NCBI GenBank assembly: GCA_965200475.1
Contig: CBDAUL010000004.1
Location: forward strand, 154,664 to 218,663
Direction: 5' to 3'
DNA length: 64,000 nt
From: Vicinamibacterales bacterium
GTDB taxonomy: Bacteria > Acidobacteriota > Vicinamibacteria > Vicinamibacterales > UBA8438
Shown in pieces: positions 6,730 through 64,000 of this stretch. Every line of letters begins with the position of its first letter. The stretch's first letter is position 1. The translations under genes were made by a program, and so were the position numbers. The notes under the pieces are model-generated. The model did no database searches. It had not been told where the DNA came from and saw nothing but the letters and a program-made list of their open reading frames with translations.

Positions 6730-6774
6730 ATGGCGGAATGCGGTCCGGTAGAATCCGGCGAGAGGAGGACTGCC

Positions 6775-8331
6775 ATGATCCGCAGCCAGCGTTTGCTCGT
6801 GAACGGTGCAGTCGCCGCCGGCCTGGCCGTCGCGGCCGCGTGCGCGACCCCCGCCGCGGAACCCGAGAGCCCCTGCGCCGCGCTGACGGCCCTGGAGCTC
6901 GTCGACCTGCGGATCGGCTCGGCGGAGCACCTGCCGGAAACGGAGGGCGTGCCGGCCCACTGCCGCGTGACGGGGGTCGTCGAGACCGAGATCAACTTCG
7001 AGCTGCTGCTGCCCGACGACTGGAACGGCCGCTTCCTGATGGGCGGCGGGGGCGGCTTCGTCGGCAGCGTGCAGAACCAGGCCCGCTCGCTCTACGCCCA
7101 CGGCGGGAGCCCGCTCGAGCGCGGCTACGCCACGGCGGGGACCGACACCGGCCACACCGGCAGCGGCATCGAGGCCGGCTGGGCGCTCGACAATCCCGAG
7201 CGGCAGGAGAACTTCGGCCACCGCGCCGTGCACCTGACGGCCGAGACCTCGAAGTCGATCATCGCGCACTACTACGCGCGGCCCGCGGACTACGCCTACT
7301 TCGTGGGCTGCTCGCGGGGCGGCGGCCAGGCCATGATGGAGTCGCAGCGCTATCCGGACGACTTCGACGGCATCGTGGCGGCCGCGCCGGCCTACCACTG
7401 GACCGGGATCACGGCCGGGTTCGTGCAGAACCAGCAGGCGATCTACCCGGACGGCGACCTCGACGCGCCGGTGCTCACTGCGGCGACGCTCGAGCTGCTC
7501 GGATCGAGCATCCTCGCCGCGTGCGACGCGGACGACGGGGTCGAGGACGGCATGCTGGCCGATCCGCGGCAGTGCGGCTTCGACCCGGCCGACCTCCCGC
7601 GCTGCGCCGCCGGCCGCCCGGGCGACGACTGCGTCACCGACGCGCAGCTCGCGGCGATCGAAACCGTCTACGGCGGCCCGCTGTCGAACGGCGAGCCCAT
7701 CTACCACGGCTTCAACTACGGCGGCGAGCATGAGGCCGGCGGCTGGGACGCGTGGGTGGTCGGCTCGGAGCAGCGCCGGGCCCCCGGGATTCCCAACGCG
7801 CAGTACGGCTTCGGCACCGAGCTCTTCAAGTACTTCGTCTTCGGCGACCCCGACTGGGACTACACACGCTACGACTTCGCGACCTGGCGGGACGACGTCG
7901 CGGAGACGGCCGCGATCCTCAACGCGACGGACACCGACCTGAGCCGGTTCCGGGACGCCGGCGGGAAGATCATCTACTGGACCGGCTGGTCCGACCTCGC
8001 CCTCGCGCCGCTCGGCACCATCGACTACTACGAGCGGCTCGCGGCGGGCGACCCGTCGGCCCGCGACTACGCGCGCCTCTACATGCTGCCGGGCGTGCTC
8101 CACTGCGCGGGCGGCCCCGGTCCAGACCGCGTCGACTGGGTGGAGGCTATCCGCGCCTGGGTGGAGGAGGAACGCGCGCCCGAGCGCCTGCTGGCGGCGA
8201 AGGTGGGCGAGGACGGCCGCGTCACGATGACGCGCCCCGCCTGCCCGTATCCGCAGGCGGCCGTCTACGACGGCAGCGGCGACCCCCGCGACGCCGCCAG
8301 CTTCACCTGCGCGGCGCCGCCGCACGAATAG
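6775..8331 (+). CDS. Tannase/feruloyl-esterase family alpha/beta hydrolase, lipoprotein-type signal
   Basis: GAGGAGGA RBS lies before the ATG at 6775. Signal ends in AVAAAC. Contains LLLPDDWNGRF.MGGGGGF.G and the GCSRGGGQAMMESQRYPDDFDGI.A.AP nucleophile-elbow context typical of the family. Confidence 0.8.
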   Translation: MIRSQRLLVNGAVAAGLAVAAACATPAAEPESPCAALTALELVDLRIGSAEHLPETEGVPAHCRVTGVVETEINFELLLPDDWNGRFLMGGGGGFVGSVQNQARSLYAHGGSPLERGYATAGTDTGHTGSGIEAGWALDNPERQENFGHRAVHLTAETSKSIIAHYYARPADYAYFVGCSRGGGQAMMESQRYPDDFDGIVAAAPAYHWTGITAGFVQNQQAIYPDGDLDAPVLTAATLELLGSSILAACDADDGVEDGMLADPRQCGFDPADLPRCAAGRPGDDCVTDAQLAAIETVYGGPLSNGEPIYHGFNYGGEHEAGGWDAWVVGSEQRRAPGIPNAQYGFGTELFKYFVFGDPDWDYTRYDFATWRDDVAETAAILNATDTDLSRFRDAGGKIIYWTGWSDLALAPLGTIDYYERLAAGDPSARDYARLYMLPGVLHCAGGPGPDRVDWVEAIRAWVEEERAPERLLAAKVGEDGRVTMTRPACPYPQAAVYDGSGDPRDAASFTCAAPPHE

Positions 8332-8439: not shown

Positions 8440-9411
8440 CTACTCCACGACGAAGGTGATGTCCTCGTGGGCCGACAGGCCTCCGTCGTGCGCCAGCGAG
8501 CGGAGGATGAACGTCCCCGGCCGGCCGAACGTGGCCCGGGCCACCCACTTGCCGTCGGGGGGCGCGGGCGGCGTCTCGAAGCCGTAGCCCCACGGCGAGT
8601 TCGAGTTCGGCCGGGTATCCTCCCACACCTTGGTCTGCGGCGGGTCGAAGGTGACGTCGTGCCCCGGTCCGCGATACACGAACCACGACAGCCGCAGCCC
8701 GGTCGCCGTGACCGGCACCGTGTTGTTGCCCGACCGCGACGGGTCCAGCGGCCGCAACGGCCTCTGCTCCGGCACGCCGTCGTCGCTGGCGAACGCGGTC
8801 AGCGTGACGGCCTCTCCCACCCGCGCCGTCCTGGTGCGCTCGCCCTCGACCTCCAGCACCGGCGGCGTATTGGGGTTCACCACGTCGCGGGTGCGGAGTC
8901 CGCTGTTCCGCTGGACGACGAAGTCGTCGATGAAGTAGTCGGGCTTCAGCGTGGCGTAGGCCCGGTACGTCTTGCCGTTCGGGCTGTTGAGCGTCCAGAC
9001 GATCTCCCGGTCGCCGAAGTCGGCCGGCACGGGGATGCGGAACATGAACCGGTTGCGCCGCGGCAGGAACCAGGTCGGCTGGCCCCGGTCGGGCCCGCCC
9101 GGCGCGATGTGGTTGTCCGGCCCGATCGGGATGTGGAACGTCTCCTCCCAGTTCCGGTTCATCGTGCCGAACACCAGGTTGAACGACCCGTCGGGGTTCC
9201 GCTCCCAGCCTTCGTACGCGGGCAGCACCTCCTGTCCGGTCGCGCGGTAGTGCTGCTGCGCCGCGCCGTCGGGCTGCAACGCGCCGACGGCCAGCAGAAC
9301 GGCGACGCCCAGGAGTCCGCGCCGTAGAACGGCGCAGACTCCTGGCAGCGTTGGTCGGGCGGCAATCGGAGCCGCAGGCGACGATTCCCGGGCCGTTGCC
9401 GCGCGTCTCAC
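8440..9411 (-). CDS. Family B secreted protein, copy 1 (unrecognised N-terminal domain + Ig-like C-terminal domain)
   Basis: Full-length alignment with 36215..37129, 41701..42642 and 63163..>64000 (YEGW..NPDGS, NRNWEE, GP.N, GQPT.F.PRR, VPADFG). The signal h-region is GLLGVAVLLAVGAL. The start is uncertain. The only standard start upstream of the signal is GTG 9411, which overlaps the A1 stop. Confidence 0.7.
   Translation of the reverse strand: MRRAATARESSPAAPIAARPTLPGVCAVLRRGLLGVAVLLAVGALQPDGAAQQHYRATGQEVLPAYEGWERNPDGSFNLVFGTMNRNWEETFHIPIGPDNHIAPGGPDRGQPTWFLPRRNRFMFRIPVPADFGDREIVWTLNSPNGKTYRAYATLKPDYFIDDFVVQRNSGLRTRDVVNPNTPPVLEVEGERTRTARVGEAVTLTAFASDDGVPEQRPLRPLDPSRSGNNTVPVTATGLRLSWFVYRGPGHDVTFDPPQTKVWEDTRPNSNSPWGYGFETPPAPPDGKWVARATFGRPGTFILRSLAHDGGLSAHEDITFVVE
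9311..9400 (+). repeat. About 90-nt repeat element, copy L1, beginning with a 14-bp (1 mismatch) hairpin
   Basis: Aligns by eye at roughly 85% with 38731..38820. The hairpin is AGGAGTCCGCGCCG-TAGAA-CGGCGCAGACTCCT. Confidence 0.7.
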
Positions 9412-10826
9412 TGCTGCTGCCCCTCGGCCAGGTCCGGGATCTCGACGTCGCCGCAGAGCGGGCAGCCGACGGCGGTCTCGCCGGGCATCAGGTTGAGCGC
9501 CTCGCGCCGCTGCGCCATCTCCTCGGCGAACTCCTCGTCCGTCAGATAGACGCCGCGCATGATGTTGATGAACATCTGGTCGACCGACCGGTTGCCGCCG
9601 CCCGACCAGTTCCGGGGATCGGCGACGTTCGGATTCGACGGCGAGTTGTTGAAGTAGCCCGTCAGGCGCAGGATGGTGCCCTTGGGCAGCAGCGGCGCGG
9701 CGTCGTCCTCGTACGTGTAGACGCGGACCCAACTGTGGTCGTACCCGGCGCAGTTGAGCGTCTCGATCGAGGTGCCGAGGATGGCGTCCAGGCACATGCG
9801 CACGCCGGGTGCGTGCAGGTGGGGCTCGTAGACGCTGATCTTCGTGTGCTCGGGCAGCGTGAAGAACGCCTCCATCCGCTGATCGGGATCCATCGGCTCG
9901 ATGTCCAGATCGACGGTGTTGCCGAACGAGATCCCCCGCACCTGCCGCGTCGGCTCGTAGCCGCGCGGATGGAACTTGAAGCCGACGTCCACGCGGGCGC
10001 GGGTATCGGCGCCGTTCGCGTGCAGGTGGATGTTCTCGAAGAAGACCGTCGATCCGGCCGCGATCAGCTTGCCGGCCTCGGGATCGAAGAAGTCGGCGTT
10101 GCGCCCGACCTCGTGCACCGGCCAGCGGGATTCCGGCGAGTCGTCATCCTCCCCGTCCGGCACGACGATGTCCATCACCAGGTGATGCACGATGAACAGC
10201 CCCCCGACCGTGGCGCGGCGCTCGCCGACGCTCGACTCGGTCACTTCCTTGAACTCGAGCGCCGAGACGTAGCGGTCCTCGGTCAGCCCCGTCGGCGTCT
10301 CCCCGATGTGGCCCCACCAGTCGGGCGATTCGCCGGGCAGCTCCACGCTCGGCGACGACACGACCAGATCGGGCTGGCCGATCTCCCACTCGTCCACGTC
10401 GATGAACGCCACCGGCGGCGGCAGGTCGGCCGGATTGCCCTCCGGTGCGCCGTTGTCGACCCACTTCGCAATCAGCGCGATCTCCTCGTCGCTCAGGGAC
10501 GGATCCTCCTTGAACGACTGGATGCCGACGTCCTTCTCGATGTACCACGGCGGCATCACGCCCGGCTTGTCGCGGAGCGCCGTGCGGTTCCTGATGGCCC
10601 GCGCCCAGGGCCGGACCTCGTCGTAGTCGATGAGCGACATCGGCGCCAGCGAGTCGGGCCGGTGGCACTTCTGGCAGCTCCGCTGCAGGATGGGCGCGAT
10701 GTCCTTGCTGAAGGTGACCTCGCCGGTCGCGGGCTGTCCCGCGGCCGTCGCCGGCAGTGCGATGAGCGCCGCGAACGCCGCCGCCAGGAACGGACGCCAT
10801 GCCCGCCGCTGTTGCATCGTCGTCAT
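9408..10826 (-). CDS. Family A secreted protein, copy 1: CxxCH heme-c motif domain fused to PHM/DBH-like copper monooxygenase-like domain
   Basis: GAGGAGG RBS lies before the ATG at 10826. Signal peptide is present. Motifs are FSKDIAPILQRSCQKCHRP, then IVHH, HLHANG, PHLHAPGVRMC and VDQM. Paralogs at 37151..38554, 42668..44032 and 61783..63105. Confidence 0.8.
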   Translation of the reverse strand: MTTMQQRRAWRPFLAAAFAALIALPATAAGQPATGEVTFSKDIAPILQRSCQKCHRPDSLAPMSLIDYDEVRPWARAIRNRTALRDKPGVMPPWYIEKDVGIQSFKEDPSLSDEEIALIAKWVDNGAPEGNPADLPPPVAFIDVDEWEIGQPDLVVSSPSVELPGESPDWWGHIGETPTGLTEDRYVSALEFKEVTESSVGERRATVGGLFIVHHLVMDIVVPDGEDDDSPESRWPVHEVGRNADFFDPEAGKLIAAGSTVFFENIHLHANGADTRARVDVGFKFHPRGYEPTRQVRGISFGNTVDLDIEPMDPDQRMEAFFTLPEHTKISVYEPHLHAPGVRMCLDAILGTSIETLNCAGYDHSWVRVYTYEDDAAPLLPKGTILRLTGYFNNSPSNPNVADPRNWSGGGNRSVDQMFINIMRGVYLTDEEFAEEMAQRREALNLMPGETAVGCPLCGDVEIPDLAEGQQQ

Positions 10827-11042: not shown

Positions 11043-12674
11043 TCACCGGGGGATTCTGTCGGAAATCAGGCCGGTCAGCTCCCGGCGGGCCGCCGCGTTG
11101 TCCGGGTCGAGCGCGAGCGCCTGCTGATAGGCGGCCGCCGCGCGGTCGAGCTCGCGCCGGGCGCGGTGCGCGCGCGCCTTGCCCAGCCAGGCCGCGGTCG
11201 AGGCCGGATCGGTCTCCACCGCCAGCGACAGGGCGTCGACGGCGAGCCACAACTGCCCCGCCCCGGCCGCCGCGCTCCCCAGCCGCGTCAACGCGGCGGC
11301 GTCCCGTTCGGCCAGCGCCAGCGCGGCCTGCAGGCTGGCGAACCCCTGCCCCGGCTGTCCCGACCGCAGGCGCGCCAGGCCGAGATGGAACTGCGCCAGC
11401 GGATTGGCGGGCGCGCGGCTCACCGCCTGCTCCAGCGCCTCGCGCGCCTGCTCCGCGTCCCCCAGCTCCAGCGCCGCGACGCCCAGCCGGTAGAGCGGCT
11501 GCGCGCTGCCCGGCCGGCGGGCGGCCAGCCTGCGGTAGTGTGCGATGGCCTGCTCCAGGTCGCCCGCCCGGGCCGCCGAGCGCGCCGCCAACTCCAGGTC
11601 GGCCTCGAACAGCCCCTCGTCGTGCAGCGACTGCAGCAGCGCGTCGAGGTCGGCCTCGGTGATCGCGCCCCGGAACTGCCGCCGCAGGCGGCCCCGGGCG
11701 TCGAAGACGTAGGTCGAGGGCAGCGCGGCCGCGTCGGCGCCGCCGAAGAACCGCTCCATCAGCGGCGCGGCGGCCAGGAACTGCGGATACGGCACGCCGA
11801 GGTCGCGGATCATTCCGCGGACCGAGTCCAGATCGTCCACCTCGACGCTGACCCCGGCGAAGTCGACGCGGCCCCCGTAGCGCCCCGCCAGCGCCACGAG
11901 CTGCGGCAGCTCCACGTTGCACGGCGCGCACCAGGGGGCCCAGAAGTTGACCACCGCGGGCCGCCCGCCGGACGCCAGCGGCCCGCTGCCGCCGGTCAGG
12001 CGGGGCACGTCCACCGCCGTCGACGGCGGACCGGCGGGCCTGGGCCGCGTGCCGTCCGGCCAGCGCGGCAGCGCATCGACCACCACCTCCCGCCGGCCCT
12101 CCACCACGCGCAGCAGCCGGTCCGCCGGCAGGTCGGTCCACGCCTCGCGGGCGCCCGACGGCCATGCGACGGTGAGCCGCTCGACGCGCTCGGCGCCGCC
12201 GAGGCCGAAGTGCAGGTCGAGCGGCACCTGCGTCTGGAACCCTTCGGTGATCCGCACGTAGTCGCGGCGGGCGATGCCGCCCGCCTCCAGCGTCACCACG
12301 GCGCCCAGCGCGGGGGCCGCCGAGCGCGTGGCGGCCAGCCGGACGCGCGCGTAGCGGCGGTCCTCGGGCGGCGCCTGCTCGTCCGACGTGTTTTCGAACA
12401 GCCGCAGGCCCTGCAGGGTCAGCAGGGCGAGATCGACGTCGCCGTCGCCGTCGACGTCCACCGGCGCGGCGGCGCGGCCGTCGTGGTCGCCGTCGAGGCC
12501 GAAGACGTACGCGCTCCCGACCAGCGCCCCGCCCGCGTTGTAGAACAGCCGGTCGCGCTCGTAGCCGCTGAACGAGCCGCGGAAGGCGCGCCGCTCCCCC
12601 GCCGCCACCGGCGCAAAGGGGCTCGCCCGCTCGATGGCCTCGGCGTCGGCGACAACCTGTCGCCAGAAGAACGG
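11043..12674 (-). CDS. C-terminal portion of a CRTAC1-like protein: ASPIC/UnbV-like + TlpA-like thioredoxin (WCAPC) + TPR; in frame with 12675..14498 across one TGA
   Basis: HFGLG....V..L.V.WPSG UnbV-like segment. VVNFWAPWCAPC redoxin motif. C-terminal Ala/Leu-rich TPR-like repeats. The 22 codons between the TGA and the first GTG (12608) are open. Confidence 0.65.
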   Translation of the reverse strand, partial: PFFWRQVVADAEAIERASPFAPVAAGERRAFRGSFSGYERDRLFYNAGGALVGSAYVFGLDGDHDGRAAAPVDVDGDGDVDLALLTLQGLRLFENTSDEQAPPEDRRYARVRLAATRSAAPALGAVVTLEAGGIARRDYVRITEGFQTQVPLDLHFGLGGAERVERLTVAWPSGAREAWTDLPADRLLRVVEGRREVVVDALPRWPDGTRPRPAGPPSTAVDVPRLTGGSGPLASGGRPAVVNFWAPWCAPCNVELPQLVALAGRYGGRVDFAGVSVEVDDLDSVRGMIRDLGVPYPQFLAAAPLMERFFGGADAAALPSTYVFDARGRLRRQFRGAITEADLDALLQSLHDEGLFEADLELAARSAARAGDLEQAIAHYRRLAARRPGSAQPLYRLGVAALELGDAEQAREALEQAVSRAPANPLAQFHLGLARLRSGQPGQGFASLQAALALAERDAAALTRLGSAAAGAGQLWLAVDALSLAVETDPASTAAWLGKARAHRARRELDRAAAAYQQALALDPDNAAARRELTGLISDRIPR

Positions 12675-14498
12675 TCAGTAGTCGGGCGCCGCGGGGTCGC
12701 GGTGGCTCGTGTTGCCGTTCGTGACGAACAGCTCGCGGTCGCCGTCGTTGTCGAGATCGTAGAAGAGCGACGCCCACGCCCAGCCCGCGTCGCTCACGCC
12801 CAGCGCCGCGGCGCGGTCGTCCCAGCCGTCCGGCCCCTGGACGAACAACTGGTTGCCGCCGGCGAGCCGGCCGAGACGGTCGTGCATGGCGCCGCCGAGG
12901 GTCTCCGCCAGACGGACCACGCGCTGCCCGGCGTGCGAGTACATGTTCGACAGGTGCAGGCTCCAGCGGCCGCTGTTGTCCCAGTCGGCGACCGCGACGC
13001 CCATCGTGTTGCCGGCGCCGCCGGCCACCGGATGGTCCGGCAGCGCCGCGAACGTGCCGTCGCCCCGGTTGTCCCACAGGGCGTTGGCCCCGTAGTCGTT
13101 CCCCTCGAACAGGTCGAGGTCGCCGTCGCCGTCGAAGTCGAAGAGGTGCGCGGCGTAGGTGTAGCGCGTGCCGGAGATGCCGCGCGCGCCCGACTCCTCG
13201 CTGAACCGCAGATCGCCGCGGTTGATGAACAGCAGCGTATCCGCGCCGTCGCGCGCGTCCACCCGGTTGAACCGCTCCGGATCCCGCGAGCGGTCCGTCT
13301 CGTAGCCGGCCACCACGATGTCGATCAGCCCGTCGCCGTTCACGTCGCCGGCCGTCAGCGGCTGGGCGTCCGTACGGTGCGCGCCGGACGGGTTGTCGAA
13401 CTCGAGCGCGTTCGGGAGAAACTGCCAGCGGCCGCCGCGGCGCGTGTACAGGCCGATCGAGCCGCGCCCGGCGCTGTAGAGCACCCGGTTGCCGACCAGC
13501 TCCTCCAGACCGTCGCCGTCGAGGTCGACGAAGAGGGTCTGCGAGGGAATCAGGCGCGCATCGTCGTAGGGCGGCGCCGCGCGCACGAAGCCGCCCCGGC
13601 CGTCGTTGAGGAACAGCACCGCCTGGTTCATCGACTCGGTCGCCAGCAGGTCCCAGAATCCGTCCGCGTTCCAGTCGACGACGCTCAGCCCGGAGTCGAC
13701 GAGGCTGGAGCGCGTGTCCACGATCGCCTGCCGCAGCTCGCGGTTGGCTTCCGAGCGGTTGAAGTGGAACCCGGCGGCATCCGTGATCTCGCGGAACGGC
13801 GGATGCGGGTTGCGGACCGCCGTCGCCTCCACCACGTCGAACCGCTCGACGTGCCAGCGGCCGGACGGCGCCCGGCTCACGCGCGCGTGCACGGTGGCGT
13901 CGAGGACCGCACGCGCGCCGGCGGGGTCCGGCCCCCCGATCTGCAGGTGCGCCTTGACGAACGCCCGGTCGCGCGCCGGCTCGAGCAGGAACTCGAAGGC
14001 GTGCCAGGAGGCCCGCTCCACCGCGGTCCAGCCGGCGGCGTGGCGGCGCAGCACCGCCAGGAACGAGGCGCCGTCGAGCGGCTCCGACGCCGCCGGCCCG
14101 TAGCGGCGAACGGCGAGCCGGTCATCCGCGACGACGCGGCCGGCGTCCGGCTCCGGGAAGCGCCCCCGGAACCCCGCGGACAACCCGCGGGCGGCCGCCG
14201 CCCAATCGAAAACGCGCAGGCCGGCGATCAGGGTGTCGTCGAGGCTCCGCTGCACCGCCTCGAGCGCGGCCTCGGACTCGGTGACGTCGGAGACGAACCG
14301 CGCGGGAGCCGGAGCCAGATCGGACTCGGGCCGAGCCGTCTGCGCGCCGGCAGGCGCAACGGCGGAAGACAGCGCCAGCCATCCGGCAACGCCGAGCATG
14401 CCGCCCGCGAGGAAGGGTCGCACCGGTCTGCCGGCAGTATACAGGCCCCGGCGCCGCGCCCGGCGGCCAGACCCCCGGGGCGCTATGATACGAGCCAT
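12675..14498 (-). CDS. FG-GAP/VCBS-repeat (CRTAC1-like) N-terminal portion, ending at in-frame TGA 12675..12677
   Basis: Repeated DxDxDG motifs (DWNADGFWD, DLDGDGLEE, DVNGDGLID, DFDGDGDLD, DLDNDGDRE). Signal-like N-terminus. The start is uncertain (14498 or the internal Met at MLGVAGW). Confidence 0.7.
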   Translation of the reverse strand: MARIIAPRGSGRRARRRGLYTAGRPVRPFLAGGMLGVAGWLALSSAVAPAGAQTARPESDLAPAPARFVSDVTESEAALEAVQRSLDDTLIAGLRVFDWAAAARGLSAGFRGRFPEPDAGRVVADDRLAVRRYGPAASEPLDGASFLAVLRRHAAGWTAVERASWHAFEFLLEPARDRAFVKAHLQIGGPDPAGARAVLDATVHARVSRAPSGRWHVERFDVVEATAVRNPHPPFREITDAAGFHFNRSEANRELRQAIVDTRSSLVDSGLSVVDWNADGFWDLLATESMNQAVLFLNDGRGGFVRAAPPYDDARLIPSQTLFVDLDGDGLEELVGNRVLYSAGRGSIGLYTRRGGRWQFLPNALEFDNPSGAHRTDAQPLTAGDVNGDGLIDIVVAGYETDRSRDPERFNRVDARDGADTLLFINRGDLRFSEESGARGISGTRYTYAAHLFDFDGDGDLDLFEGNDYGANALWDNRGDGTFAALPDHPVAGGAGNTMGVAVADWDNSGRWSLHLSNMYSHAGQRVVRLAETLGGAMHDRLGRLAGGNQLFVQGPDGWDDRAAALGVSDAGWAWASLFYDLDNDGDRELFVTNGNTSHRDPAAPDY

Positions 14499-16497
14499 GC
14501 AGCGTGCCGCGCTCGTCATCCTGTTGCTGGCGCTCGGCCTCGGTCTCCCGGCGGCAGCCGCCTCCGCCCAGGATTGGCGCCCGCTCACCACCGCGAACGG
14601 CGAGTGGCCCAGCTACGGCGGCGACACCGGGCACACGCGCTACTCGCCGCTGGACCAGATCGACGCGTCCAACTTCGGCGAGCTCGAGATCGCCTGGCGC
14701 TTCAAGACCGACAACCTCGGCCCGGCGCCCGAGTTCAAGCTCGAGGGCACGCCGCTCATGGCCGGCGGCGTGCTGTACGCGACCGGCGGCACCCGGCGGG
14801 CGGTCGTGGCGCTCGACGCCGCCAGCGGCGAGCTGCTGTGGATGCACAGCGAGCACGAGGGCGAGCGGGCGGCGCGGGCGCCGCGCCTGCTGTCGGGGCG
14901 CGGCCTGGCGTACTGGACCGACGGCACCGCGGCCCGCATCCTGTACGTCACGCTCGGGTTCCGCCTGGTGGCGCTGGACGCCGCCACCGGCATCCGGGAC
15001 CCCGGCTTCGGCGACGGCGGGATCGTCGACCTCAAGGCGGCGGCCGTCGTCGGCGACGGCCGGCCGATCGACCTCGTCAGCGGGGAGATAGGCCTGCACG
15101 CCACGCCCACCGTGGCGCGGGACGTCGTCATCGTGGGGGGCACGTTCGCCGACGCCCCGGCGCCGCGGACGCACAACAACACCAAGGGCCTGGTGCAGGC
15201 GTTCGACATCCGCACCGGCCGGCGCCTGTGGGTCTTCAACACCGTCCCCCGCCCCGGCGAGTTCGGCGCCGACACCTGGCTCAACGACTCGTGGGGCACC
15301 AACGGCAACAACGGCGTCTGGACGCAGATCTCGGCCGATGCCGACCTCGGCATCGTCTATCTGCCGGTCGAGACGCCGTCCGGCGACTACTACGGCGGAC
15401 ACCGGCCGGGCGACAACCTCTTCGGCGAGAGCCTCGTGGCGGTCGACCTGCTGAGCGGCGAGCGGCTGTGGCACTTCCAGCTCGTGCACCACCCGATCTG
15501 GGGCTTCGACATGGCCAGCCCCCCGATTCTGGCGGACATCACCGTCGACGGGCGGCCGATCAAGGCGGTCGCGCAGCCCGGCAAGCAGGCGTTCCTGTAC
15601 GTCTTCGACCGGGTCACCGGCGAGCCGGTCTGGCCGATCGAGGAACGGCCGGTGCCGCAGGGCGACGTGCCCGGCGAGTGGTACTCCCCGACCCAGCCCT
15701 TCCCCACGAGGCCGCCGGCCTACGACCGGCAGGGCGCGTCCATCGACGACCTGATCGACTTCACGCCCGAGCTGCGCGCCGAGGCCGTCGAGCTGGTGTC
15801 GCGCTATCGACTCGGGCCGCTCTTCACGCCGCCGGTCGTCAGCCGCGAGGACGGCCCCATCGCCACGCTGGGGCTGGGCGCCGGCAGCGGCGGCACGAAC
15901 TGGCCCGGCGGCGGCTACGACCCCGAGACCCACATCCTGTACGTCCCGTCGCGGACCGGGTTCTACTCCTGGGAGCTGATCCCCACGCCGGGGCCGGACG
16001 TCTCGGACATGCGCTACGTGAAGGGCACGACGAAGTACGGCGTCGGTCACGGCGGGCTGCGCGACCTCAACGTGCGCGGGCTGCCGCTGGTCAAGCCGCC
16101 CTACGGGCGCCTGTCCGCCATCGACCTCGACCGCGGCGACATCCTGTGGCAGACGCCGCACGGCGACACGCCCGACCGCGTTCGGCACCACCCGGCGCTC
16201 CGGAACCTGGAGATTCCGCGCACCGGCGAGCGGTGCATCCACCTGATCGGCCCGCTCGTCACCCGCACGCTGGTCGTGATGGGCGAGTGCGGCTACCACC
16301 GGACCGAGGCGGGGCGGGGCGCCATGCTGCGGGCCTACGACAAGGCGACGGGCCGGGAGGTGGGCGCGGTCTTCATGCCGGCGCCGCAGTCGGGGTCGCC
16401 GATGACCTACCTGGCCGGCGGGCGGCAGTACATCGTGCTCGCCGTCAGCGGACGCACCTACTCGGGCGAGTACCTCGCCTTCCGGCTGCCGGGGTAA
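14485..16497 (+). CDS. PQQ-dependent (quinoprotein) dehydrogenase, secreted
   Basis: Signal peptide followed by W.SYGGD..HTRYSPLDQI..SN...L..AW and GTPL...GVLY...... . The repeated propeller W-motif pattern is typical of quinoprotein dehydrogenases. The start is 14485 or 14497. Confidence 0.8.
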   Translation: MIRAMQRAALVILLLALGLGLPAAAASAQDWRPLTTANGEWPSYGGDTGHTRYSPLDQIDASNFGELEIAWRFKTDNLGPAPEFKLEGTPLMAGGVLYATGGTRRAVVALDAASGELLWMHSEHEGERAARAPRLLSGRGLAYWTDGTAARILYVTLGFRLVALDAATGIRDPGFGDGGIVDLKAAAVVGDGRPIDLVSGEIGLHATPTVARDVVIVGGTFADAPAPRTHNNTKGLVQAFDIRTGRRLWVFNTVPRPGEFGADTWLNDSWGTNGNNGVWTQISADADLGIVYLPVETPSGDYYGGHRPGDNLFGESLVAVDLLSGERLWHFQLVHHPIWGFDMASPPILADITVDGRPIKAVAQPGKQAFLYVFDRVTGEPVWPIEERPVPQGDVPGEWYSPTQPFPTRPPAYDRQGASIDDLIDFTPELRAEAVELVSRYRLGPLFTPPVVSREDGPIATLGLGAGSGGTNWPGGGYDPETHILYVPSRTGFYSWELIPTPGPDVSDMRYVKGTTKYGVGHGGLRDLNVRGLPLVKPPYGRLSAIDLDRGDILWQTPHGDTPDRVRHHPALRNLEIPRTGERCIHLIGPLVTRTLVVMGECGYHRTEAGRGAMLRAYDKATGREVGAVFMPAPQSGSPMTYLAGGRQYIVLAVSGRTYSGEYLAFRLPG

Positions 16498-36214: not shown

Positions 36215-37129
36215 TCAGCGGTTCACGTTGATCGTGACGTCCTCATAGTCGATCAGGCCGCCGTCGTGGGCCAGCGCGCGCAGCACGTAGGTGCCGGGCT
36301 CGCTGAAGGTGGCCTGCACGGTCCAGCGGTTGTCCTCGGGCACGCGCGGCGTCTCCCAGCCCGTCGACCACGGCGAGTTGCCGCCGTCGCGGTGGTCCTG
36401 CCACACCTTCGTCTGGGGCGGATCGAACACGACCTCGCCCGGCCCCCGGTAGCGGAACCACGACAGGCGCAGCCCGGTGGCCGAGTTGGGAACGAAGTGG
36501 CTCGTGCCGATCAGCGCCACCGGAATCGAGCGCGGCGCCGGCTTGCCGTCGTCGGCGGCGACCGCGCTCAGCGTGACCGGCTCGCCGGCGCTCACGGTCA
36601 TCGTCGGGGGCGTCTCGAGCGTCAGGTCCGGGGCCATGTTGCCGATCATGTCCGGGTGGAACCCGGTCTGCCCCCCGGCGCCGAAGTTGGCCATCATGAC
36701 CGTCTCGTCGACCATGTACTCCGGCCGCAGCGTGGCGTACGCGTTCTCGGTCACGCCGTTGCTCGTTAGCGACCAGACGATCTCGTCGTCGCCGAAGTCG
36801 GCCGGCACCGTGACCTTGAAGACGAACTGGCTGCGCCGCGGGAAGAAGTGGGTCGGCTGGCCGAGGTCGGGACCACCCGGATCCATGTGGTTGTCCGGGC
36901 CGACCGGCACGTCGATCTCCTCCTCCCAGTTGCGGTTGTAGTAGCCGAACCAGAGGTCGATGGAACCGTCGTCGTGCCGCCAGAAGCCCTCGTAGACCGG
37001 GGCGATGTTCTGGCCCCGGGCCGGGGCCTGCGCGCCGGTCGCGAGCGGCGCCGCCAGCACGACGGCGACGCCGAGCGCGAGCGCCGCGGCGGAGACCCTG
37101 AGCAGCCGCGAGGAAGGCGTCGTCTGCAT
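36215..37129 (-). CDS. Family B secreted protein, copy 2
   Basis: ATG with GAGGAAGGG RBS, 21 nt after the A2 stop. Signal peptide is present. Contains the YEGFW..DDGS, NRNWEE, GQPTHFFPRR and VPADFG motifs and an Ig-like C-terminus (VTLSAVAADDG, LRLSWFRYRGPG, PGTYVLRALAHDGG). Confidence 0.8.
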   Translation of the reverse strand: MQTTPSSRLLRVSAAALALGVAVVLAAPLATGAQAPARGQNIAPVYEGFWRHDDGSIDLWFGYYNRNWEEEIDVPVGPDNHMDPGGPDLGQPTHFFPRRSQFVFKVTVPADFGDDEIVWSLTSNGVTENAYATLRPEYMVDETVMMANFGAGGQTGFHPDMIGNMAPDLTLETPPTMTVSAGEPVTLSAVAADDGKPAPRSIPVALIGTSHFVPNSATGLRLSWFRYRGPGEVVFDPPQTKVWQDHRDGGNSPWSTGWETPRVPEDNRWTVQATFSEPGTYVLRALAHDGGLIDYEDVTINVNR

Positions 37130-37150: not shown

Positions 37151-38554
37151 CTACTGGTTCTGTCCCAGCCAGGCCAGTCCCGGCTCCGGATTCTCGAAGC
37201 CGCACAGCGGACAGCCGATGGCCGACTCGCCCTCGGCCAGATCCAGCCGCTCGCGGCGCGTGGCCATCTCCTCCGCGAACTGCTCGTCGGTCAGCACGAT
37301 GGGGCTGGCGATGAGGATCGCCATGTTGTCGATCGAGCGGTGGCCGAGCCCGCCCCAGTTGCGCGGGTCCACGACGTTCTTGTTGCTGGGCGTGTTGTCG
37401 AAGTGGGCGGTGATGTGGATCAGCGTGCCCTTCGGCAGCAGCGGCGCCGAGTCGTCCGTGTAGCGGTACACCTTCACCCAGTTGTGGTCGTACCCGGCGC
37501 AGTTGAGCACCTCGGTGCGGCCGCCCCAGATGGCCTCCATGCACATCCGGACGCCGGACGCGTGCATGTGCGGCTCGAAGGTGGTGAGCTTGATGTGCTC
37601 GTCCAGCGTCCTGTACATGTGCACCTGCTGCCCGGCCGTCATGCCGCGCAGGTCGATCTCGCCGTTGCCGAACGTGAGATCGCCGAGCCGCCGCTGCGGC
37701 TCGTAGCCCCGCGGATGGAACTTGTAGCCGACGCGCAGGTGCGCGGTCGTGTCCTCGCCGTTGGCATGCATGTGGACCGACGGGAACACGAGCTGCGAGC
37801 CCGCCTTCAGCAGGCGGCCGGCCAGCGCGTCGAAGACCTCGGCGTTGCGGCCGACCTCGTGGGGGCCGCCGATGGTCTGCGACGGGCGCCCCTCGCCGTC
37901 GAGCATCGCGTGCACGGCGTGGTGGAAGATGAACTTCCCGCCGATGCCGCCCTGCACGTCGCTGACCTCCTTGAACTGCACGGCCGAGACGTAGCGATCC
38001 TCCTCGAGGCCGGTCGGCGTCGGCGCGAGCGCGCCCCACCAGTCCGGGGCCTCGGCCGCCATCGTGATCGACGGCGAATCGACGATGAGATCGGGCTCGC
38101 CGATGTCCCATTCGTCCGCGGCGGCGAAGACGCGCGCCGGCGGCAGGTCGGCGGGGTTCCCGCGGGGCGCGCCGTTGTCGACCCACGCGGCGATCGCCTC
38201 GATCTCCGCCTCGCTGAGCGAGATGTCGTCCTTGAACGCCTGGATGCCGACGTCCTTCTCGATGAACCAGGGCGGCATGACGCCCATGGTGTTCCTGAGC
38301 CCGGTCCGCTGCTTGATGCTGCGCGCCCACGGCCGCACCTCTTCGTAGGTGATGAGCGACATCGGCGCGACGGAGTTCGGCCGGTGGCAGCTCTGGCAGC
38401 TCCGCTGCAGGATCGGCGCGATGTCCCTGCTGAAGGTCACCTCGCCGGCGGACTGCTCCGCCGCCGCCGGCACGGCGAGCATCGCGGCCGCCAGCACCAG
38501 CGCCGACGCGACCGCGCCGGCCGTTCTCGAAACCGTGTTGCAGTCTGTTGTCAT
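37151..38554 (-). CDS. Family A secreted protein, copy 2: CxxCH heme-c motif + PHM/DBH-like copper monooxygenase-like domain
   Basis: GGAGGG RBS and signal peptide. Motifs are SCQSCHRP, FHH, VHMHANG, PHMHASGVRMC and IDNM, with a C-terminal GCPLCG. Confidence 0.8.
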   Translation of the reverse strand: MTTDCNTVSRTAGAVASALVLAAAMLAVPAAAEQSAGEVTFSRDIAPILQRSCQSCHRPNSVAPMSLITYEEVRPWARSIKQRTGLRNTMGVMPPWFIEKDVGIQAFKDDISLSEAEIEAIAAWVDNGAPRGNPADLPPARVFAAADEWDIGEPDLIVDSPSITMAAEAPDWWGALAPTPTGLEEDRYVSAVQFKEVSDVQGGIGGKFIFHHAVHAMLDGEGRPSQTIGGPHEVGRNAEVFDALAGRLLKAGSQLVFPSVHMHANGEDTTAHLRVGYKFHPRGYEPQRRLGDLTFGNGEIDLRGMTAGQQVHMYRTLDEHIKLTTFEPHMHASGVRMCMEAIWGGRTEVLNCAGYDHNWVKVYRYTDDSAPLLPKGTLIHITAHFDNTPSNKNVVDPRNWGGLGHRSIDNMAILIASPIVLTDEQFAEEMATRRERLDLAEGESAIGCPLCGFENPEPGLAWLGQNQ

Positions 38555-41700: not shown

Positions 41701-42642
41701 CTACTCCGCGGACGCAACAGTGACGGTGATGTCGGCCGGCGTCAGGTAGCTGCTGTCGTCGGCGGCGGCGCGGATGACGTACTCCCCCGGCTCGGAGAAG
41801 CGCGCGGCGGCCGTCACCTGGCCGCCCTCGCGGGGCAGCGGCGTGACCCGCGGGTCGAAGGCCACGTCGGCCGGGCCGCGGTGCACGACCCAGGTGACCG
41901 CCAGGCCGGTGTCGTATGCGTCGAGCGGACTCACCCGGTTCTGATCCACCGGGCCGCCGCCCCCGCCGCCGCGCGGCCCGCCGATGATCGGCAGGTCGTT
42001 CGGCAGCGGATCGACCGGCGGACGCGGGCGGCGCGGGATCTCGCGCGGCCCGGGCTGGCCGTCGTCGGCCACGGCCACCGTGACGGAAACCGGCTCGCCC
42101 ACCATCGCCGAGATCGAGGTGCTGCCCACGATGCTGGCCGCCGGCGGCTGGTTGGTCAGCTCCTCGCCGGCGTACCGCCCGCGCAGGTCGGAGCCGCGGT
42201 TGGCCCGCCACACGCCCTCGTCGACCACCCAGGTGGCCCACAGCGAGCCGATCGCGGTGCGGGTCTGCCCGTGGGCGGTCACCGTCCAGACCAGGTCCCG
42301 GTCCTGGCCCCAGTCGGCCGGCACCTCGACGCCGAAGACGAAGAACTGGCGGCGCGGATAGAAGAAGGTCGGCTGGCCGCGGTCTTCCGGGCCGGAGTCG
42401 AGGTAGTTGGCGGGGCCGACCGGGATGTGCGGCTGCTCCTCGTAGTTGCGGTTCATGTAGCCGAACCACATGGTGTAGGTGCCGTCCGGATTCGGGCTCC
42501 AGCCCTCGTAGACAGGCTGGACCGACTGGCCCGAGCGGTGGAGGGTCTGCGCCGCGCCGAGGCCGCCCGCACCGAGAGCGAGCCCGAGCAGCAGCGCCGC
42601 CGCGGCCGCCGCACGCCACACGTTCCGACTGCGGGCACTCAT
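41701..42642 (-). CDS. Family B secreted protein, copy 3
   Basis: GGGGAGGGG RBS, 25 nt after the A3 stop. Signal peptide is present. Contains YEGWSPNPDGT, NRNYEE, GQPTFFYPRR and VPADWG, plus an Ig-like C-terminus. Confidence 0.8.
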   Translation of the reverse strand: MSARSRNVWRAAAAAALLLGLALGAGGLGAAQTLHRSGQSVQPVYEGWSPNPDGTYTMWFGYMNRNYEEQPHIPVGPANYLDSGPEDRGQPTFFYPRRQFFVFGVEVPADWGQDRDLVWTVTAHGQTRTAIGSLWATWVVDEGVWRANRGSDLRGRYAGEELTNQPPAASIVGSTSISAMVGEPVSVTVAVADDGQPGPREIPRRPRPPVDPLPNDLPIIGGPRGGGGGGPVDQNRVSPLDAYDTGLAVTWVVHRGPADVAFDPRVTPLPREGGQVTAAARFSEPGEYVIRAAADDSSYLTPADITVTVASAE

Positions 42643-42667: not shown

Positions 42668-44032
42668 CTAGTTGTCGTTGTTGTTGTTCGTGGTCCGGGC
42701 CGCCAGGCGCTTGTCGAGCTCCGCCGCGTACTCCTCGTCGGTCAGCTCGTACCAGTTCATGTGGGCCAGCGCCATGTCGTCGGTCGAGCGGTTGCCCCAC
42801 CCCACCCAGTTGCGCGGGTCGGAGGCCCACTTGTTGGCCTGCGAGTTGTCGTGCCAGCTCGTCACGTGGAGCATCGTCCCCTTGGGCAGCAGCGGCGCGG
42901 CGTGGTCGGCGTAGTTGTAGGCGATGTGCCAGCCGAAGTCCCAGTCGGCGCAGCTCAGCGGCTGCACCCGGCCGTCCTGGTAGACCGCCTCGAGGCACTG
43001 CCGCTTGCCGAGGTTGTGGAGGTGCGGCTGGTAGACCGTCAGCTTGATGTTCGACTTCAGGAAATAGTAGCCGTCATGCCGGATGTTGTTCTCCCCCGGC
43101 GGGAAGTCCAGGTCGTGCAGGCCGGCCACGGACCGCCACTTCACCTGCTGCTCGGGCTCGTAGCCCCGCGGGTAGAACCAGAACGCGATGGCGGTGCGGT
43201 CGTAGGTGTCCTCGCCGCTCGGGTTGGCCGAGTAGTGCATGCTCCAGCGCAACTGCGAGCCGGCCTCGAACAGCCGGGCGGTCCCGTCCGGATGGATGTC
43301 GCCCGTCTTGCCGAGGGCATACTCGCTGAGGAGCTCCGGCGATTCGTCCACCTCGCCCGGATGGAACAGGTAGGTCACGGCGTGGTGCACGACCGGGTAG
43401 CCCTCCACCGACGGCTTGGTCTCGTACGCCTTGATCCAGCGATCCTCGTCCACCCCGGGGTCGGTCACCATCTCGACCCACCAGTTCGGGCTGTCCGCCG
43501 GCATGAAGAAGGGCTCCGGGATGGGCACGACCAGATCGGGCTCGCGGCCCATCTCGTCCTCCATCGTCCAGCGCGAGAGCGTGGCGGGCAGCGTCAGCGG
43601 CGGCGGCATGTCGGCCGGGTTGCCGCGCCGCGCCCCGCCGTCGACCCACGCGGCGATGGTGGCGATCTCCGCGTCGGTCAGCGAGCGGTCGTCCTTGAAC
43701 TCCTGCACGCCCACCGTCTTGTCGATGAACCAGGGCGGCATCTTGCGGGTGACCACCCGGTCGCGGATGGACCGCGCCCACGGCCGCGAGTCCTCGTAGG
43801 TGATGAGCGACATCGGCGCGATGGCCCCCGGGCGATGGCACGTCTGGCAGGCGCGCTGGAAGATCGGCGCCACGTCCCGGGTGAAGGTCACCTCGTCGCC
43901 GGCCGTCTGCCCTGCCGCGATGGCGGGCGCGACCGCCAGCGCCGCGAGGACGGCCAGCCCGAGCGCGCGAGACGACATCGATCCGACCCGCCGACCGCCA
44001 CCCGCCACGAGCATCCCGGTGGCCATGTGCAT
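42668..44032 (-). CDS. Family A secreted protein, copy 3
   Basis: C-terminal part of ORF 42668..47215. GAGGGAGGG lies before the ATG at 44032 (alternative starts 44014 and 43978). Motifs are ACQTCHRP, VHH, MHYSAN, PHLHNLGKRQC and TDDM. Confidence 0.8.
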   Translation of the reverse strand: MHMATGMLVAGGGRRVGSMSSRALGLAVLAALAVAPAIAAGQTAGDEVTFTRDVAPIFQRACQTCHRPGAIAPMSLITYEDSRPWARSIRDRVVTRKMPPWFIDKTVGVQEFKDDRSLTDAEIATIAAWVDGGARRGNPADMPPPLTLPATLSRWTMEDEMGREPDLVVPIPEPFFMPADSPNWWVEMVTDPGVDEDRWIKAYETKPSVEGYPVVHHAVTYLFHPGEVDESPELLSEYALGKTGDIHPDGTARLFEAGSQLRWSMHYSANPSGEDTYDRTAIAFWFYPRGYEPEQQVKWRSVAGLHDLDFPPGENNIRHDGYYFLKSNIKLTVYQPHLHNLGKRQCLEAVYQDGRVQPLSCADWDFGWHIAYNYADHAAPLLPKGTMLHVTSWHDNSQANKWASDPRNWVGWGNRSTDDMALAHMNWYELTDEEYAAELDKRLAARTTNNNNDN

Positions 44033-61782: not shown

Positions 61783-63105
61783 GTGCGAATGCTGCAGCCG
61801 CGAGGCGTGGTCATCGGGCTCGGCGTGCTGGCAATCCTGGCGGCGATGCCGGTCCTGGCGGCCGGACAGGAGGCGGCCGGCGAGCGCGGGCTCACCTTCA
61901 CGCGCGACGTCGCGCCGATCATCCACCGCTCCTGCTCCGGGTGCCATCGCCCCGACGAGGTCGCACCCATGTCGCTGATGACCTACGAGGAGGTGCGGCC
62001 CTGGGCCCGGTCGATCAGGAACCGGGTGGCGTCGCGCGAGATGCCGCCCTGGCACCTCGACCGCCGCATCGGGATTCAGCAGTTCAAGAACGATCCGTCG
62101 CTGACCGACGCCGAGATCGCGACCATCGTGGACTGGGTGGACGCGGGCGCGCCGCGCGGGGACCTCGCCGACATGCCGCCGCTGCCCACCTGGGGCAGCG
62201 CCGACGACTGGCAGATCGGTGAGCCGGACCTGATCGTGCAATACCCGAGCTACCTCGTCCCGGCGGCGGGGCCGGACCTGTTCGGCTATCTCTACGCCGA
62301 CTTCGACCTCGAGGAGGATCGCTACATCCGCGCCATCCAGACCAAGCCGGCCGACAAGCGGGCGCGCCTGGTCGTGCATCACACGAACGCCTTCGCCATC
62401 GCCCCCGGCGACACGACCGAAGGCGTGGAGTCGGAACGCCACCTGGTCGAGTACGCGTCCGGCAAGCAGGCCGAGATCTATCCGGAGGACTCGGGCGTGC
62501 TGCTGCAGGCGGGCAGCCGGACCCGGCTCAGCTATCACCTCCACTCGGTCGGTGAGGACATCGACACCGTGGTGGAGCTCGGGATCGTGTTTCACCCCGA
62601 GGGCACGGTGCCGGAGCACGTCCGCTGGACCAAGCAGCTCGCCGGCGCGCACGGCACCATCGCCGGCCTCGTCGACCTGCCGCCGGGGCAGGTGACGCGC
62701 TCTGACGGCTACACGCGCTTCAACAAGGCGGCGCGGATCACCATGTTCCAGCCGCACATGCACATGCTCGGCAAGTACCAGTGCCTCGAGCTGATCTACC
62801 CGACGCAGCCGGTGCGCACCGAGGTGGTCAACTGCGCCCACTTCGACTACAACTGGCACCTGGCGTACAACTACGCCGACGACGCGGCCCCGCTGGTGCC
62901 GGCCGGGACGATCCTGCACGTCGTCAACTGGCACGACAACACGGCGGGCCACCGCGCCAATCCCGACCCGCGCAACTGGACGGGCAGCGGCGGCCGCACG
63001 ATCGACGAGATGGGGTTCGCGTGGATCGGCTGGTACGACCTGACCGACGAGGAGTACGAGGCCGAGCTGACGGCGCGCGAAGCGGCGCGGCGCAAGACCA
63101 ACTGA
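61783..63105 (+). CDS. Family A secreted protein, copy 4
   Basis: GGGAGG lies 6 nt before GTG 61783 (ATG 61789 is an alternative). Signal peptide. CSGCH at 61933..61947, then VHH, YHLHSVG, PHMHMLGKYQC and IDEM. Confidence 0.8.
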   Translation: MRMLQPRGVVIGLGVLAILAAMPVLAAGQEAAGERGLTFTRDVAPIIHRSCSGCHRPDEVAPMSLMTYEEVRPWARSIRNRVASREMPPWHLDRRIGIQQFKNDPSLTDAEIATIVDWVDAGAPRGDLADMPPLPTWGSADDWQIGEPDLIVQYPSYLVPAAGPDLFGYLYADFDLEEDRYIRAIQTKPADKRARLVVHHTNAFAIAPGDTTEGVESERHLVEYASGKQAEIYPEDSGVLLQAGSRTRLSYHLHSVGEDIDTVVELGIVFHPEGTVPEHVRWTKQLAGAHGTIAGLVDLPPGQVTRSDGYTRFNKAARITMFQPHMHMLGKYQCLELIYPTQPVRTEVVNCAHFDYNWHLAYNYADDAAPLVPAGTILHVVNWHDNTAGHRANPDPRNWTGSGGRTIDEMGFAWIGWYDLTDEEYEAELTAREAARRKTN

Positions 63106-63162: not shown

Positions 63163-64000
63163 ATGCTGAAGTCACGGGCACGTATCCGTCCGATCCTGGG
63201 GCTGGCCCTGACGCTGGGATTCGGACTCCCCGCCGGCGCCGCCGCGCAGGCCGACCCCTTCAACTTCCCGTTCACCTCGGGACAGACCGTCGCGCCGTTC
63301 TTCGACGGCTGGTCGCGGAACCCGGACGGCACGTACGAGATGCACTTCGGGTACATCAACCGCAACTACGTCGAGGAGCTGCACGTGCCGATCGGACCGG
63401 ACAACAGCTTCGGGACGGGCGGCGTCGACCAGGGCCAGCCGACCTTCTTCTACCCGCGCGTCCACCGCAAGGTGTTCAGCGTGACCGTGCCCGCCGACTG
63501 GGGCGAGCGCGAGCTGGTGTGGAGCCTGACCGTCCGCGGCCAGCGCCAGCAGGCCATCGCCTGGCTCGACCCGGTCTGGGAGATCGATCCGATCCTCGGC
63601 GGCCGCGCGCCGACGGCGGAGCAGCGCGTCAACCAGGCGCCGCGACTGTCGGTGACCGCAGACGGACGCACCGTGAGGCTGCCGGACACCCTGGCGCTGA
63701 CCGCCCGCGTGAGCGACGACGGCGTGCCGCGGGCGAGCGGCCCGCGCCGCCGGGCGCGCGGGCAGGAAACGCCGCCGACGCTGCAGCCGGCGGCCGACGA
63801 GCCCCGGGCGCCCGTCAACGTGCCGGTCCTGCGGACAGGGACGCGGCCGAGCGAGGTGGCGGTCGACGACCGCCTGACCATCACCTGGTCGGTGCTGCGC
63901 GGGCCCGCCAGCGTCGCGGTCGAGGCCGACTCGCCCGATGCGGAGGCCGGCGAGCCGGTGCGGATGACGGCCACGTTCTCCGCGCCGGGCGAGTACCTGC
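63163..64000 (+). CDS. Family B secreted protein, copy 4 (3' end outside window)
   Basis: Not in the ORF track because there is no stop before the window end. My own translation from ATG 63163 is open to 64000. It begins MLKSRARIRPILGLALTLGFGLPAGAAAQ and carries FDGWSRNPDGT, NRNYVEE, GQPTFFYPR, VPADWG and then LTARVSDDGVP. Confidence 0.75.
   Translation, partial: MLKSRARIRPILGLALTLGFGLPAGAAAQADPFNFPFTSGQTVAPFFDGWSRNPDGTYEMHFGYINRNYVEELHVPIGPDNSFGTGGVDQGQPTFFYPRVHRKVFSVTVPADWGERELVWSLTVRGQRQQAIAWLDPVWEIDPILGGRAPTAEQRVNQAPRLSVTADGRTVRLPDTLALTARVSDDGVPRASGPRRRARGQETPPTLQPAADEPRAPVNVPVLRTGTRPSEVAVDDRLTITWSVLRGPASVAVEADSPDAEAGEPVRMTATFSAPGEYL

Follow-up and report, generated by a model that had tools for sequence, protein, structure and literature searches.

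Peptidylglycine α-hydroxylating monooxygenase (PHM), dopamine β-hydroxylase (DBH), and tyramine β-monooxygenase are the textbook examples of noncoupled binuclear copper monooxygenases, for which ascorbate supplies the electrons in animals, and to our knowledge work on them has been confined almost entirely to animals. The copper ligands of PHM are H107, H108, and H172 for the CuH site and H242, H244, and M314 for the CuM site. A cytochrome as the electron source of a copper enzyme is familiar from two other systems: three-domain NirK (e.g. from Ralstonia pickettii), a periplasmic copper enzyme, takes in electrons through a tethered mono-heme class I cytochrome c, and the heme domain of cellobiose dehydrogenase (CDH) feeds lytic polysaccharide monooxygenases (LPMOs) outside the cytoplasm, in place of small-molecule reductants. 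The present analysis concerns a gene, A1, in a 64,000-nucleotide stretch of DNA from a Vicinamibacterales bacterium (contig CBDAUL010000004.1, positions 154,664 to 218,663; hereafter the window). On balance, the A1 product is probably a periplasmic or secreted redox enzyme of three modules, in which a heme c would feed electrons to a core containing CuH and CuM for O2-dependent hydroxylation, working together with a partner protein, B.

The A1 gene and the predicted elements of its product, with the basis of each assignment, are as follows.

9408..10826, minus strand: A1 gene, 472 residues, with a signal peptide, a mono-heme cytochrome c domain, and a two-domain PHM/DBH-like core (open reading frame, AlphaFold2/Foldseek, hhalign)
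10737..10826, minus strand: residues 1–30, predicted N-terminal export signal, MTTMQQRRAWRPFLAAAFAALIALPATAAG (read by eye)
10437..10724, minus strand: residues 35–130, class I-type cytochrome c domain with helices 39–50, 68–83, and 113–124 (Pfam in homologs, model)
10662..10676, minus strand: CQKCH (C51, C54, H55), putative heme-c attachment motif with the proximal His (conservation)
10554..10556, minus strand: M91 in MPPW, predicted distal axial heme ligand (conservation)
9957..10379, minus strand: residues 150–290, N-terminal β-sandwich equivalent to the CuH domain of PHM (model, Foldseek, hhalign)
10182..10187, minus strand: H214-H215, equivalent to the CuH ligands H107-H108 of PHM (hhalign, conservation)
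10026..10028, minus strand: H267, equivalent to H172 of PHM, the third CuH ligand (hhalign, conservation)
9492..9956, minus strand: residues 291–445, C-terminal β-sandwich equivalent to the CuM domain of PHM, with a C-terminal helix (model, Foldseek, hhalign, Cu2_monoox_C in homologs)
9813..9821, minus strand: H336-L-H338, equivalent to the CuM ligands H242-T-H244 of PHM (hhalign, conservation)
9573..9575, minus strand: M418 in (D/E)-x-M, equivalent to M314 of PHM, the CuM thioether ligand (hhalign, conservation)

For A1, AlphaFold2 with 103 homologs as input gave a model that has a mean predicted local distance difference test score (pLDDT) of 78.8 and a predicted template modelling (TM) score of 0.77, and is comprised of three helices within residues 39–124 followed by two β-sandwiches at approximately residues 150–430. 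A Foldseek search of the PDB with this model returned human DBH (4ZEL) at ranks 1 and 2 (E = 4.7e-11 and 1.9e-10) and 29 entries of rat PHM at ranks 3–31 (E = 1e-7 to 2.7e-5, probability 1.00). The top 31 matches are exclusively DBH or PHM, in agreement with the PHM fold that an earlier reading of the sequence alone (the original prediction) had proposed, and unrelated jelly rolls appear from E = 2.4e-4. The target-normalised TM-score against rat PHM is ∼0.5, and the root mean square deviation to PHM/DBH is at least 7 Å, as expected for two hinge-linked domains.

A tblastn search with A1 located exactly three paralogs within the window, all of which carry a hydrophobic export signal at the N terminus, as does A1 (read by eye). 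The positions and motifs of the paralogs, from tblastn and alignment, are given here.

37151..38554, minus strand: A2, 467 residues, with CQSCH at 53, MPPW at 93, FHH at 210, PHMH at 328, and DNM at 409
42668..43978, minus strand: A3, 436 residues from the ATG at 43978 (start uncertain), with CQTCH at 44, MPPW at 80, VHH at 197, MHYS at 247, PHLH at 318, and DDM at 400
61789..63105, plus strand: A4, 438 residues, identical to the public protein P0121, with CSGCH at 49, MPPW at 85, VHH at 196, PHMH at 322, and DEM at 406

Identity to A1 is 59% for A2, 46% for A3, and 41% for A4, and the exact sequences of A1, A2, and A4 are also contained in public assemblies. In A1 the motifs run in the order FSKDIAPILQRSCQKCHRP (C51, C54, H55), IVHH (H214, H215), IHLHANG (H267), PHLHAPGVRMC (H336, H338, C345), and VDQM (D416, M418), and a four-way alignment bore out the claim that CxxCH, HH, H, HxH, and M follow one another in the same order in all four A proteins. 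The motif variants quoted in the original prediction were all recovered across the four, namely F(S/T)(K/R)D(I/V)API..R.C..CHRP, (V/F)HH, HLHANG/HMHANG/MHYSAN/HLHSVG, PH(L/M)H..G..(M/Q)C, and (V/I/T)D(Q/N/D/E)M. Invariance among the four paralogs is in itself weak evidence, because 113 alignment columns are invariant among them at 41–59% identity to A1. Conservation was therefore assessed in a diverse set of 65 sequences, composed of 61 full-length representatives and the four window paralogs and spanning 26–58% identity to A1, with 12 further modules taken from fusion proteins as an extra test set.

Only nine columns are invariant across the 65 sequences, namely C51, C54, H55, M91, P92, W122, G130, H214, and H336. 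H215, H267, and H338 each occur in 64 of the 65 sequences, and M418 in 61. The His residues conserved in at least 85% of this set are exactly H55, H214, H215, H267, H336, and H338; the Cys residues are C51 and C54; and the Met residues are M63, M91, and M418, together with the start Met. All of these Cys, His, and Met residues, except M63, are retained in every one of the 12 extra modules. The expectation that the ligand positions would be conserved in orthologs thus held, with near-invariance across 65 plus 12 sequences, and the strongly conserved potential metal ligands of the A family are essentially all predicted cofactor ligands. Two further residues quoted from the paralog motifs fared differently: C345 and D416 are present in A1 as described, and both are specific to subfamilies, C345 occurring in 16/65 and D416 in 42/65 sequences. 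The likely disulfide partner of C345, C359, occurs in 15/65, and with this minority or partial conservation C345/C359 and D416 were rejected as family-defining features.

Alignment of the 65-sequence profile with the rat PHM core (a target sequence verified to be identical to 1SDW chain A, in which residue 1 is PAM residue 43) gave an hhalign probability of 94.2% and E = 1.1e-7 over 243 columns. The alignment pairs IVHHLV of A1 with TVHHML of PHM, IHLH with VHYG, PHLHAPG with VHTHHLG, and VDQM with SDEM, so that H214/H215 fall on H107/H108, H267 on H172, H336/H338 on H242/H244, and M418 on M314. All six copper ligands proposed for A1 are therefore placed on the PHM ligands, reproducing their order as had been claimed. 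The likeness to the HTHHLGK segment of PHM, which had been remarked on in the window paralogs, also extends beyond the ligands: the A family consensus reads PHMHxRGK ... DEM and that of PHM HTHHLGK ... DEM, with H-x-H-x-x-G-K and D-E-M in both.

At the level of individual sequences the relationship is much harder to see. Searches with the single A1 sequence against NCBIfam and, by phmmer, against the PDB found no copper domain, and a profile of 103 A sequences found no match among PDB sequences. Among the 65 homologs, at E ≤ 1, Pfam Cu2_monoox_C matched 33 (best E = 1.5e-5) and Cu2_monooxygen 14, mostly below threshold; the distant member P0323, with 25.0 bits against a Cu2_monoox_C gathering score of 23, is the only one to pass. 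The suggestion that a Pfam scan would reveal the copper domains was accordingly borne out in part, by recurrent weak Cu2_monoox_C and Cu2_monooxygen matches in homologs, and failed for A1, which has no such domain in Pfam. The PHM/DBH relationship of the A family is detected only by structure and profile comparison, and some distant members are probably already flagged by automated databases through Cu2_monoox_C.

The N-terminal domain is assigned with the help of the same homologs. Pfam Cytochrome_CBB3 matches A1 at E = 0.009 and 16.8 bits, below the cut-off of 27, and matches 62 of the 65 homologs, with a best E of 1.3e-7. Both CxxCH and the Met of MPPW (M91) are present in 65/65 homologs and 12/12 extra modules. 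The other candidate heme ligand, M63, is replaced by Phe in a branch of the family that carries a fused redoxin domain, and M91 is invariant, which makes M91 the likely distal axial ligand, as judged from conservation. In the A1 model the heme-binding loops (residues 55–64 and 84–93) have pLDDT values below 50, which is expected for a model of the apo form and is uninformative either way. The best sequence likenesses of the A1 heme domain in the PDB (residues 27–56 and 106–126; 10449–10748) are weak (E = 0.27–0.56) and are to the C-terminal heme domain of the anammox hydrazine synthase α subunit (5C2V_A, residues 637–665 and 747–767) and to Geobacter PccH (4RLR). These two proteins and A1 have in common a start of the form F..DI.PIL...C..CH and a helix of the form L...E...I..W.D.GA.

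Next to each of the four A genes, downstream and in the same orientation, lies a gene for a B protein.

8440..9411, minus strand: B1, 323 residues with a GTG start, secreted, two Ig-like domains (homology, model)
36215..37129, minus strand: B2, 304 residues, 21 nucleotides downstream of A2
41701..42642, minus strand: B3, 313 residues, 25 nucleotides downstream of A3
63163..64000, plus strand: B4, interrupted by the window end

The GTG start of B1 overlaps the TGA stop of A1 as GTGA, and the intergenic gaps of A2-B2, A3-B3, and A4-B4 are 21–57 nucleotides. A locus scan restricted to one genome per species yielded at least 594 A loci, and the best 80 of these were used for all neighbour counts. 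In 71 of the 80 the next gene downstream, on the same strand, is a B homolog; one locus has it immediately upstream, two have it at another place, and six have none. Direct A-B fusions also occur: the 90%-identity cluster of P0245 counts 19 proteins, of which 11 or more are full length (from NCBI, JGI, ENA, and Logan), that of P0250 counts six, and both clusters come from independent assemblies. Single examples of fusions with B-A order or a split arrangement were found as well. The paralog identity matrices of A and B are broadly parallel, with A1-A2 (61%) and B1-B2 (57%) as the closest pairs, which is consistent with joint duplication of whole AB modules.

B homologs number at least 6,935. 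Searches of B against Pfam gave no family, with only weak PKD and Big_7 matches. The B model (pLDDT 83) consists of two Ig-like sandwiches, and its comparison with known structures returned only generic tandem Ig proteins (titin, sidekick, basigin), from which no function could be assigned. B has no conserved Cys or Met, and H271 is its only near-invariant His. Its N-terminal domain is strongly conserved, with the pattern YEGW...FGxxNRNxEE...GQPTxFxPRR, and the B family is always found paired with A or fused to A. The linkage and the fusions suggest that B is probably a subunit of A, possibly with a role in substrate binding or positioning.

A profile search of 1.84 billion representatives clustered at 50% identity recovered 17,380 A family proteins at E ≤ 1e-3, of which 3,178 remain at E ≤ 1e-30, mostly from Acidobacteriota and Gemmatimonadota. 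The best 80 loci represent four phyla in all, with ∼65 from Acidobacteriota (mostly Vicinamibacterales) plus five from Bryobacteraceae, seven from Gemmatimonadota, one from Acidimicrobiia, and two from Gammaproteobacteria. The source databases name the members of the A cluster only "hypothetical protein" and its relatives "cytochrome c". In a distant branch (P0257, P0346, P0365, P0388, and P0358) an AhpC-TSA/redoxin domain is located N-terminal to the cytochrome-PHM module, TPR repeats are found in the distant members P0385 and P0388, and one source names a redoxin-fused member "peroxiredoxin". One locus of this branch, L081 (JBPNMT010000094.1, 4171–15188), encodes four redoxin-cytochrome-PHM modules in a row, two of them inside a single protein of 1251 residues, and the next gene contains a fifth, weak match to A1. 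The redoxin-branch modules all keep the copper and heme ligand set.

The subgroup containing A1 and A2 carries a conserved C-terminal GCPxCG tail (9411–9480 in A1, minus strand), which 53 of 103 aligned homologs share and A3 and A4 lack; in the diverse set, 8/65 sequences have a tail CxxC of any kind. Its thiols might handle Cu(I) or be redox-active. The redoxin fusions and the GCPxCG tail suggest that thiol chemistry is recurrently associated with the A family, possibly in the maturation of heme or copper or in dealing with peroxide.

From these elements a mechanism can be proposed, in which a heme c held by thioether links to C51 and C54, with H55 and M91 as axial ligands, would be tethered to the PHM/DBH-like core, the CuH site would be formed by H214, H215, and H267, and the CuM site by H336, H338, and M418. 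The heme would be reduced by a periplasmic donor, for example a soluble cytochrome c or a quinohemoprotein dehydrogenase, and would pass electrons to the adjacent CuH, as ascorbate does for the animal enzymes; the fused heme suggests that A does not use ascorbate as donor. Electron transfer from CuH to CuM would then cross the interdomain cleft, and CuM would bind O2 and hydroxylate a C–H bond of a substrate that is presumably not a peptide with a C-terminal glycine. B, encoded immediately downstream, would act as a dedicated subunit for binding or positioning that substrate. In the model the heme domain immediately precedes the CuH-type domain, an order that supports the heme as the point of electron entry. 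The AB module has been duplicated and has diverged many times, suggesting diversification of the substrate range.

Several points weigh against this assignment. The cofactor content and the O2-insertion activity of A are predictions that the fold and the ligands suggest, and that electrons enter by way of the heme is an assumption made from analogous enzymes. A1 itself has no Pfam copper-domain match at E ≤ 1, and its sequence identity to PHM is only 12–16%. The residues that hold the carboxylate and backbone of the glycine-extended peptide in PHM, R240, N316, and Y318, correspond to positions 334, 420, and 422 of A1, which are E, I, and I and are variable across the family. The peptide-binding residues of PHM are therefore not conserved, which argues that the A substrate is not bound as in PHM; by these comparisons A resembles PHM in predicted cofactors and fold, not in substrate. 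Conserved pathway neighbours that might hint at the substrate were not found among the 80 loci. At L081, the single redoxin-branch locus examined, there is no B homolog, and B is therefore not universally required.

The same cofactors could also work with the electrons flowing in reverse: the copper core would oxidise the substrate in the manner of an oxidase or dehydrogenase, and the respiratory chain would receive the electrons through the heme c. Fused periplasmic cytochrome c domains often serve as electron exits (the quinohemoprotein alcohol dehydrogenases are examples), PQQ dehydrogenases and cytochromes abound in the window and in related loci, and the evidence here is compatible with either direction of flow. 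However, a separated pair of coppers with three His ligands and with two His and one Met is the signature of the O2-activating monooxygenases (PHM, DBH, and tyramine β-monooxygenase) and is strictly conserved in A, and we know of no dehydrogenase with the PHM/DBH fold. An oxidase or dehydrogenase of this kind is considered unlikely.

A role in the handling of reactive oxygen or nitrogen species, whether as a peroxygenase or peroxidase, in superoxide or peroxide detoxification, or in the reduction of nitrite or NO, is less probable again. It would accommodate the distant branch with AhpC-TSA/peroxiredoxin-type domains, including the member named "peroxiredoxin", as well as the GCPxCG thiol motif of the A1/A2 subgroup and the binding of nitrite and azide at copper in PHM crystals (according to PDB titles). 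The subfamily in the window, however, has no redoxin fusion, a redoxin neighbour is found in only one of the 80 loci, and a heme with six-coordinate His/Met ligation carries electrons and offers no site for peroxide; the diversification of the paralogs and a partner of binding type are a better fit to varied organic substrates. That A is only a cytochrome c joined to a generic, non-catalytic β-sandwich binding module, with its His and Met residues structural or bound to another metal, is very improbable: 12–16% identity to PHM, the missing Pfam copper domain in A1, and the occurrence of the PHM/PNGase F fold in copper-free proteins would allow it, but the top 31 structural matches are only PHM and DBH, all six ligand positions align, and the ligands are the only conserved His and Met outside the heme site down to 26% identity, a pattern that is hard to explain without metal binding.

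The surroundings of the AB modules were surveyed for further components of the proposed monooxygenase. Clustering of open reading frames across the 80 loci found nothing recurrent besides A and B. The gene directly upstream of A1 is the following.

11043..12608, minus strand: protein with ASPIC/UnbV, AhpC-TSA/redoxin, and TPR domains (Pfam)

This gene echoes the redoxin and TPR fusions of distant A homologs, and with low confidence it might be an accessory of A1; as a conserved partner it was rejected, recurring in one of the 80 loci (the orthologous locus L003). NHL six-bladed propellers, which share their fold with PAL, the enzyme joined to PHM in eukaryotic PAM, are encoded at L058 (3308–4564), L039 (4731–5855), L077 (2306–3445), and L051 (11347–12426), two of them divergently adjacent to A. 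A PAL-like NHL propeller was likewise rejected as a component of the system, being near A in four of the 80 loci at varying distance and orientation.

Directly upstream of A3-B3 (44107–51869, minus strand) are two outer-membrane barrels with CarboxypepD_reg and OMP_b-brl_4 domains, of 1041 and 1027 residues, and a PQQ_2/BamB-like β-propeller (47408–48739) sits between them; barrels and propeller may be an uptake module for that AB copy. Between A2-B2 and A3-B3 lies a secreted-looking protein of ∼400 residues (38606–39829, plus strand) with no Pfam match at E ≤ 1e-4. Extracytoplasmic redox and hydrolytic proteins are unusually frequent in the window as a whole. The window encodes planctomycete-type proteins at 362–2077 and 19430–21856 (both plus strand), the former with DUF1552 (HXXSHH) and the latter a PSCyt1/PSCyt3/PSD2-5 cytochrome protein, a PQQ dehydrogenase (14233–16497), a tannase/feruloyl esterase (6730–8331), two ankyrin-repeat proteins (2084–3691 and 23234–24826), and three FG-GAP/ASPIC proteins. 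The G+C content of the window is ∼72%, falling locally to 0.65 at 32001–34000 compared with ∼0.72 elsewhere, and a tRNA scan of the window found none.

If the assignment of A as a heme-fed copper monooxygenase is correct, the family would show how PHM/DBH chemistry is powered where ascorbate is lacking. It would also provide a self-contained system for the debated long-range electron transfer from CuH to CuM, to which A would be suited because the heme can be triggered and its state tracked by its spectrum. In abundant and poorly cultured soil and marine phyla it would imply unexplored extracytoplasmic C–H oxidation, and the Ig-like partner and the alternative redoxin fusion would be new components without a counterpart in the animal enzymes. 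A wider and distinctly tentative proposal, held with more doubt than confidence, is that the A-B modules form a large unrecognised class of periplasmic C–H hydroxylases driven by the respiratory chain, diversified like the P450s or LPMOs for recalcitrant organic substrates in soil and marine Acidobacteriota and Gemmatimonadota, and that they may represent the prokaryotic stock of eukaryotic PHM and DBH.

Comparison with the known systems delimits what is new. A shares with PHM (the rat PAM core, 1PHM/1SDW) the fold of two β-sandwiches, six aligned copper ligands, and the H-x-H-x-x-G-K and D-E-M motifs. It differs from PHM in being bacterial and in having a fused N-terminal heme-c domain where PHM uses soluble ascorbate, in lacking the PHM disulfides, the conserved peptide-binding residues, and a linked PAL-type lyase, and in its Ig-like partner, which looks obligate. 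DBH (4ZEL, with its relatives tyramine β-monooxygenase and MOXD1) is the best structural match and, like A, has an extra N-terminal domain and extra C-terminal elements. The N-terminal domain of DBH is, however, a DOMON β-sandwich without covalent heme, whereas that of A is a helical c-type cytochrome, and DBH is an ascorbate-dependent eukaryotic enzyme that forms disulfide-linked dimers and tetramers.

The tethered cytochrome of A recalls three-domain NirK, which in contrast is an unrelated cupredoxin trimer with type-1 and type-2 copper and reduces nitrite rather than activating O2. The CDH-LPMO pair differs from A in that its heme is of type b and carried on a separate protein, and the single histidine-brace copper of the LPMO is bound in an unrelated fold. 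The original prediction had described the fusion of heme and PHM-like core as uncharacterised, with which the literature search agrees: no paper on bacterial members of the PHM/DBH Pfam families was found, only animal literature, in a search whose coverage excluded most subscription journals. Neither noncoupled binuclear copper monooxygenases nor cytochromes tethered to copper enzymes are new in themselves. Apparently undescribed are the fusion of heme c to a PHM/DBH-type core in bacteria, the Ig-like protein dedicated to it as a partner, and how large the family is.

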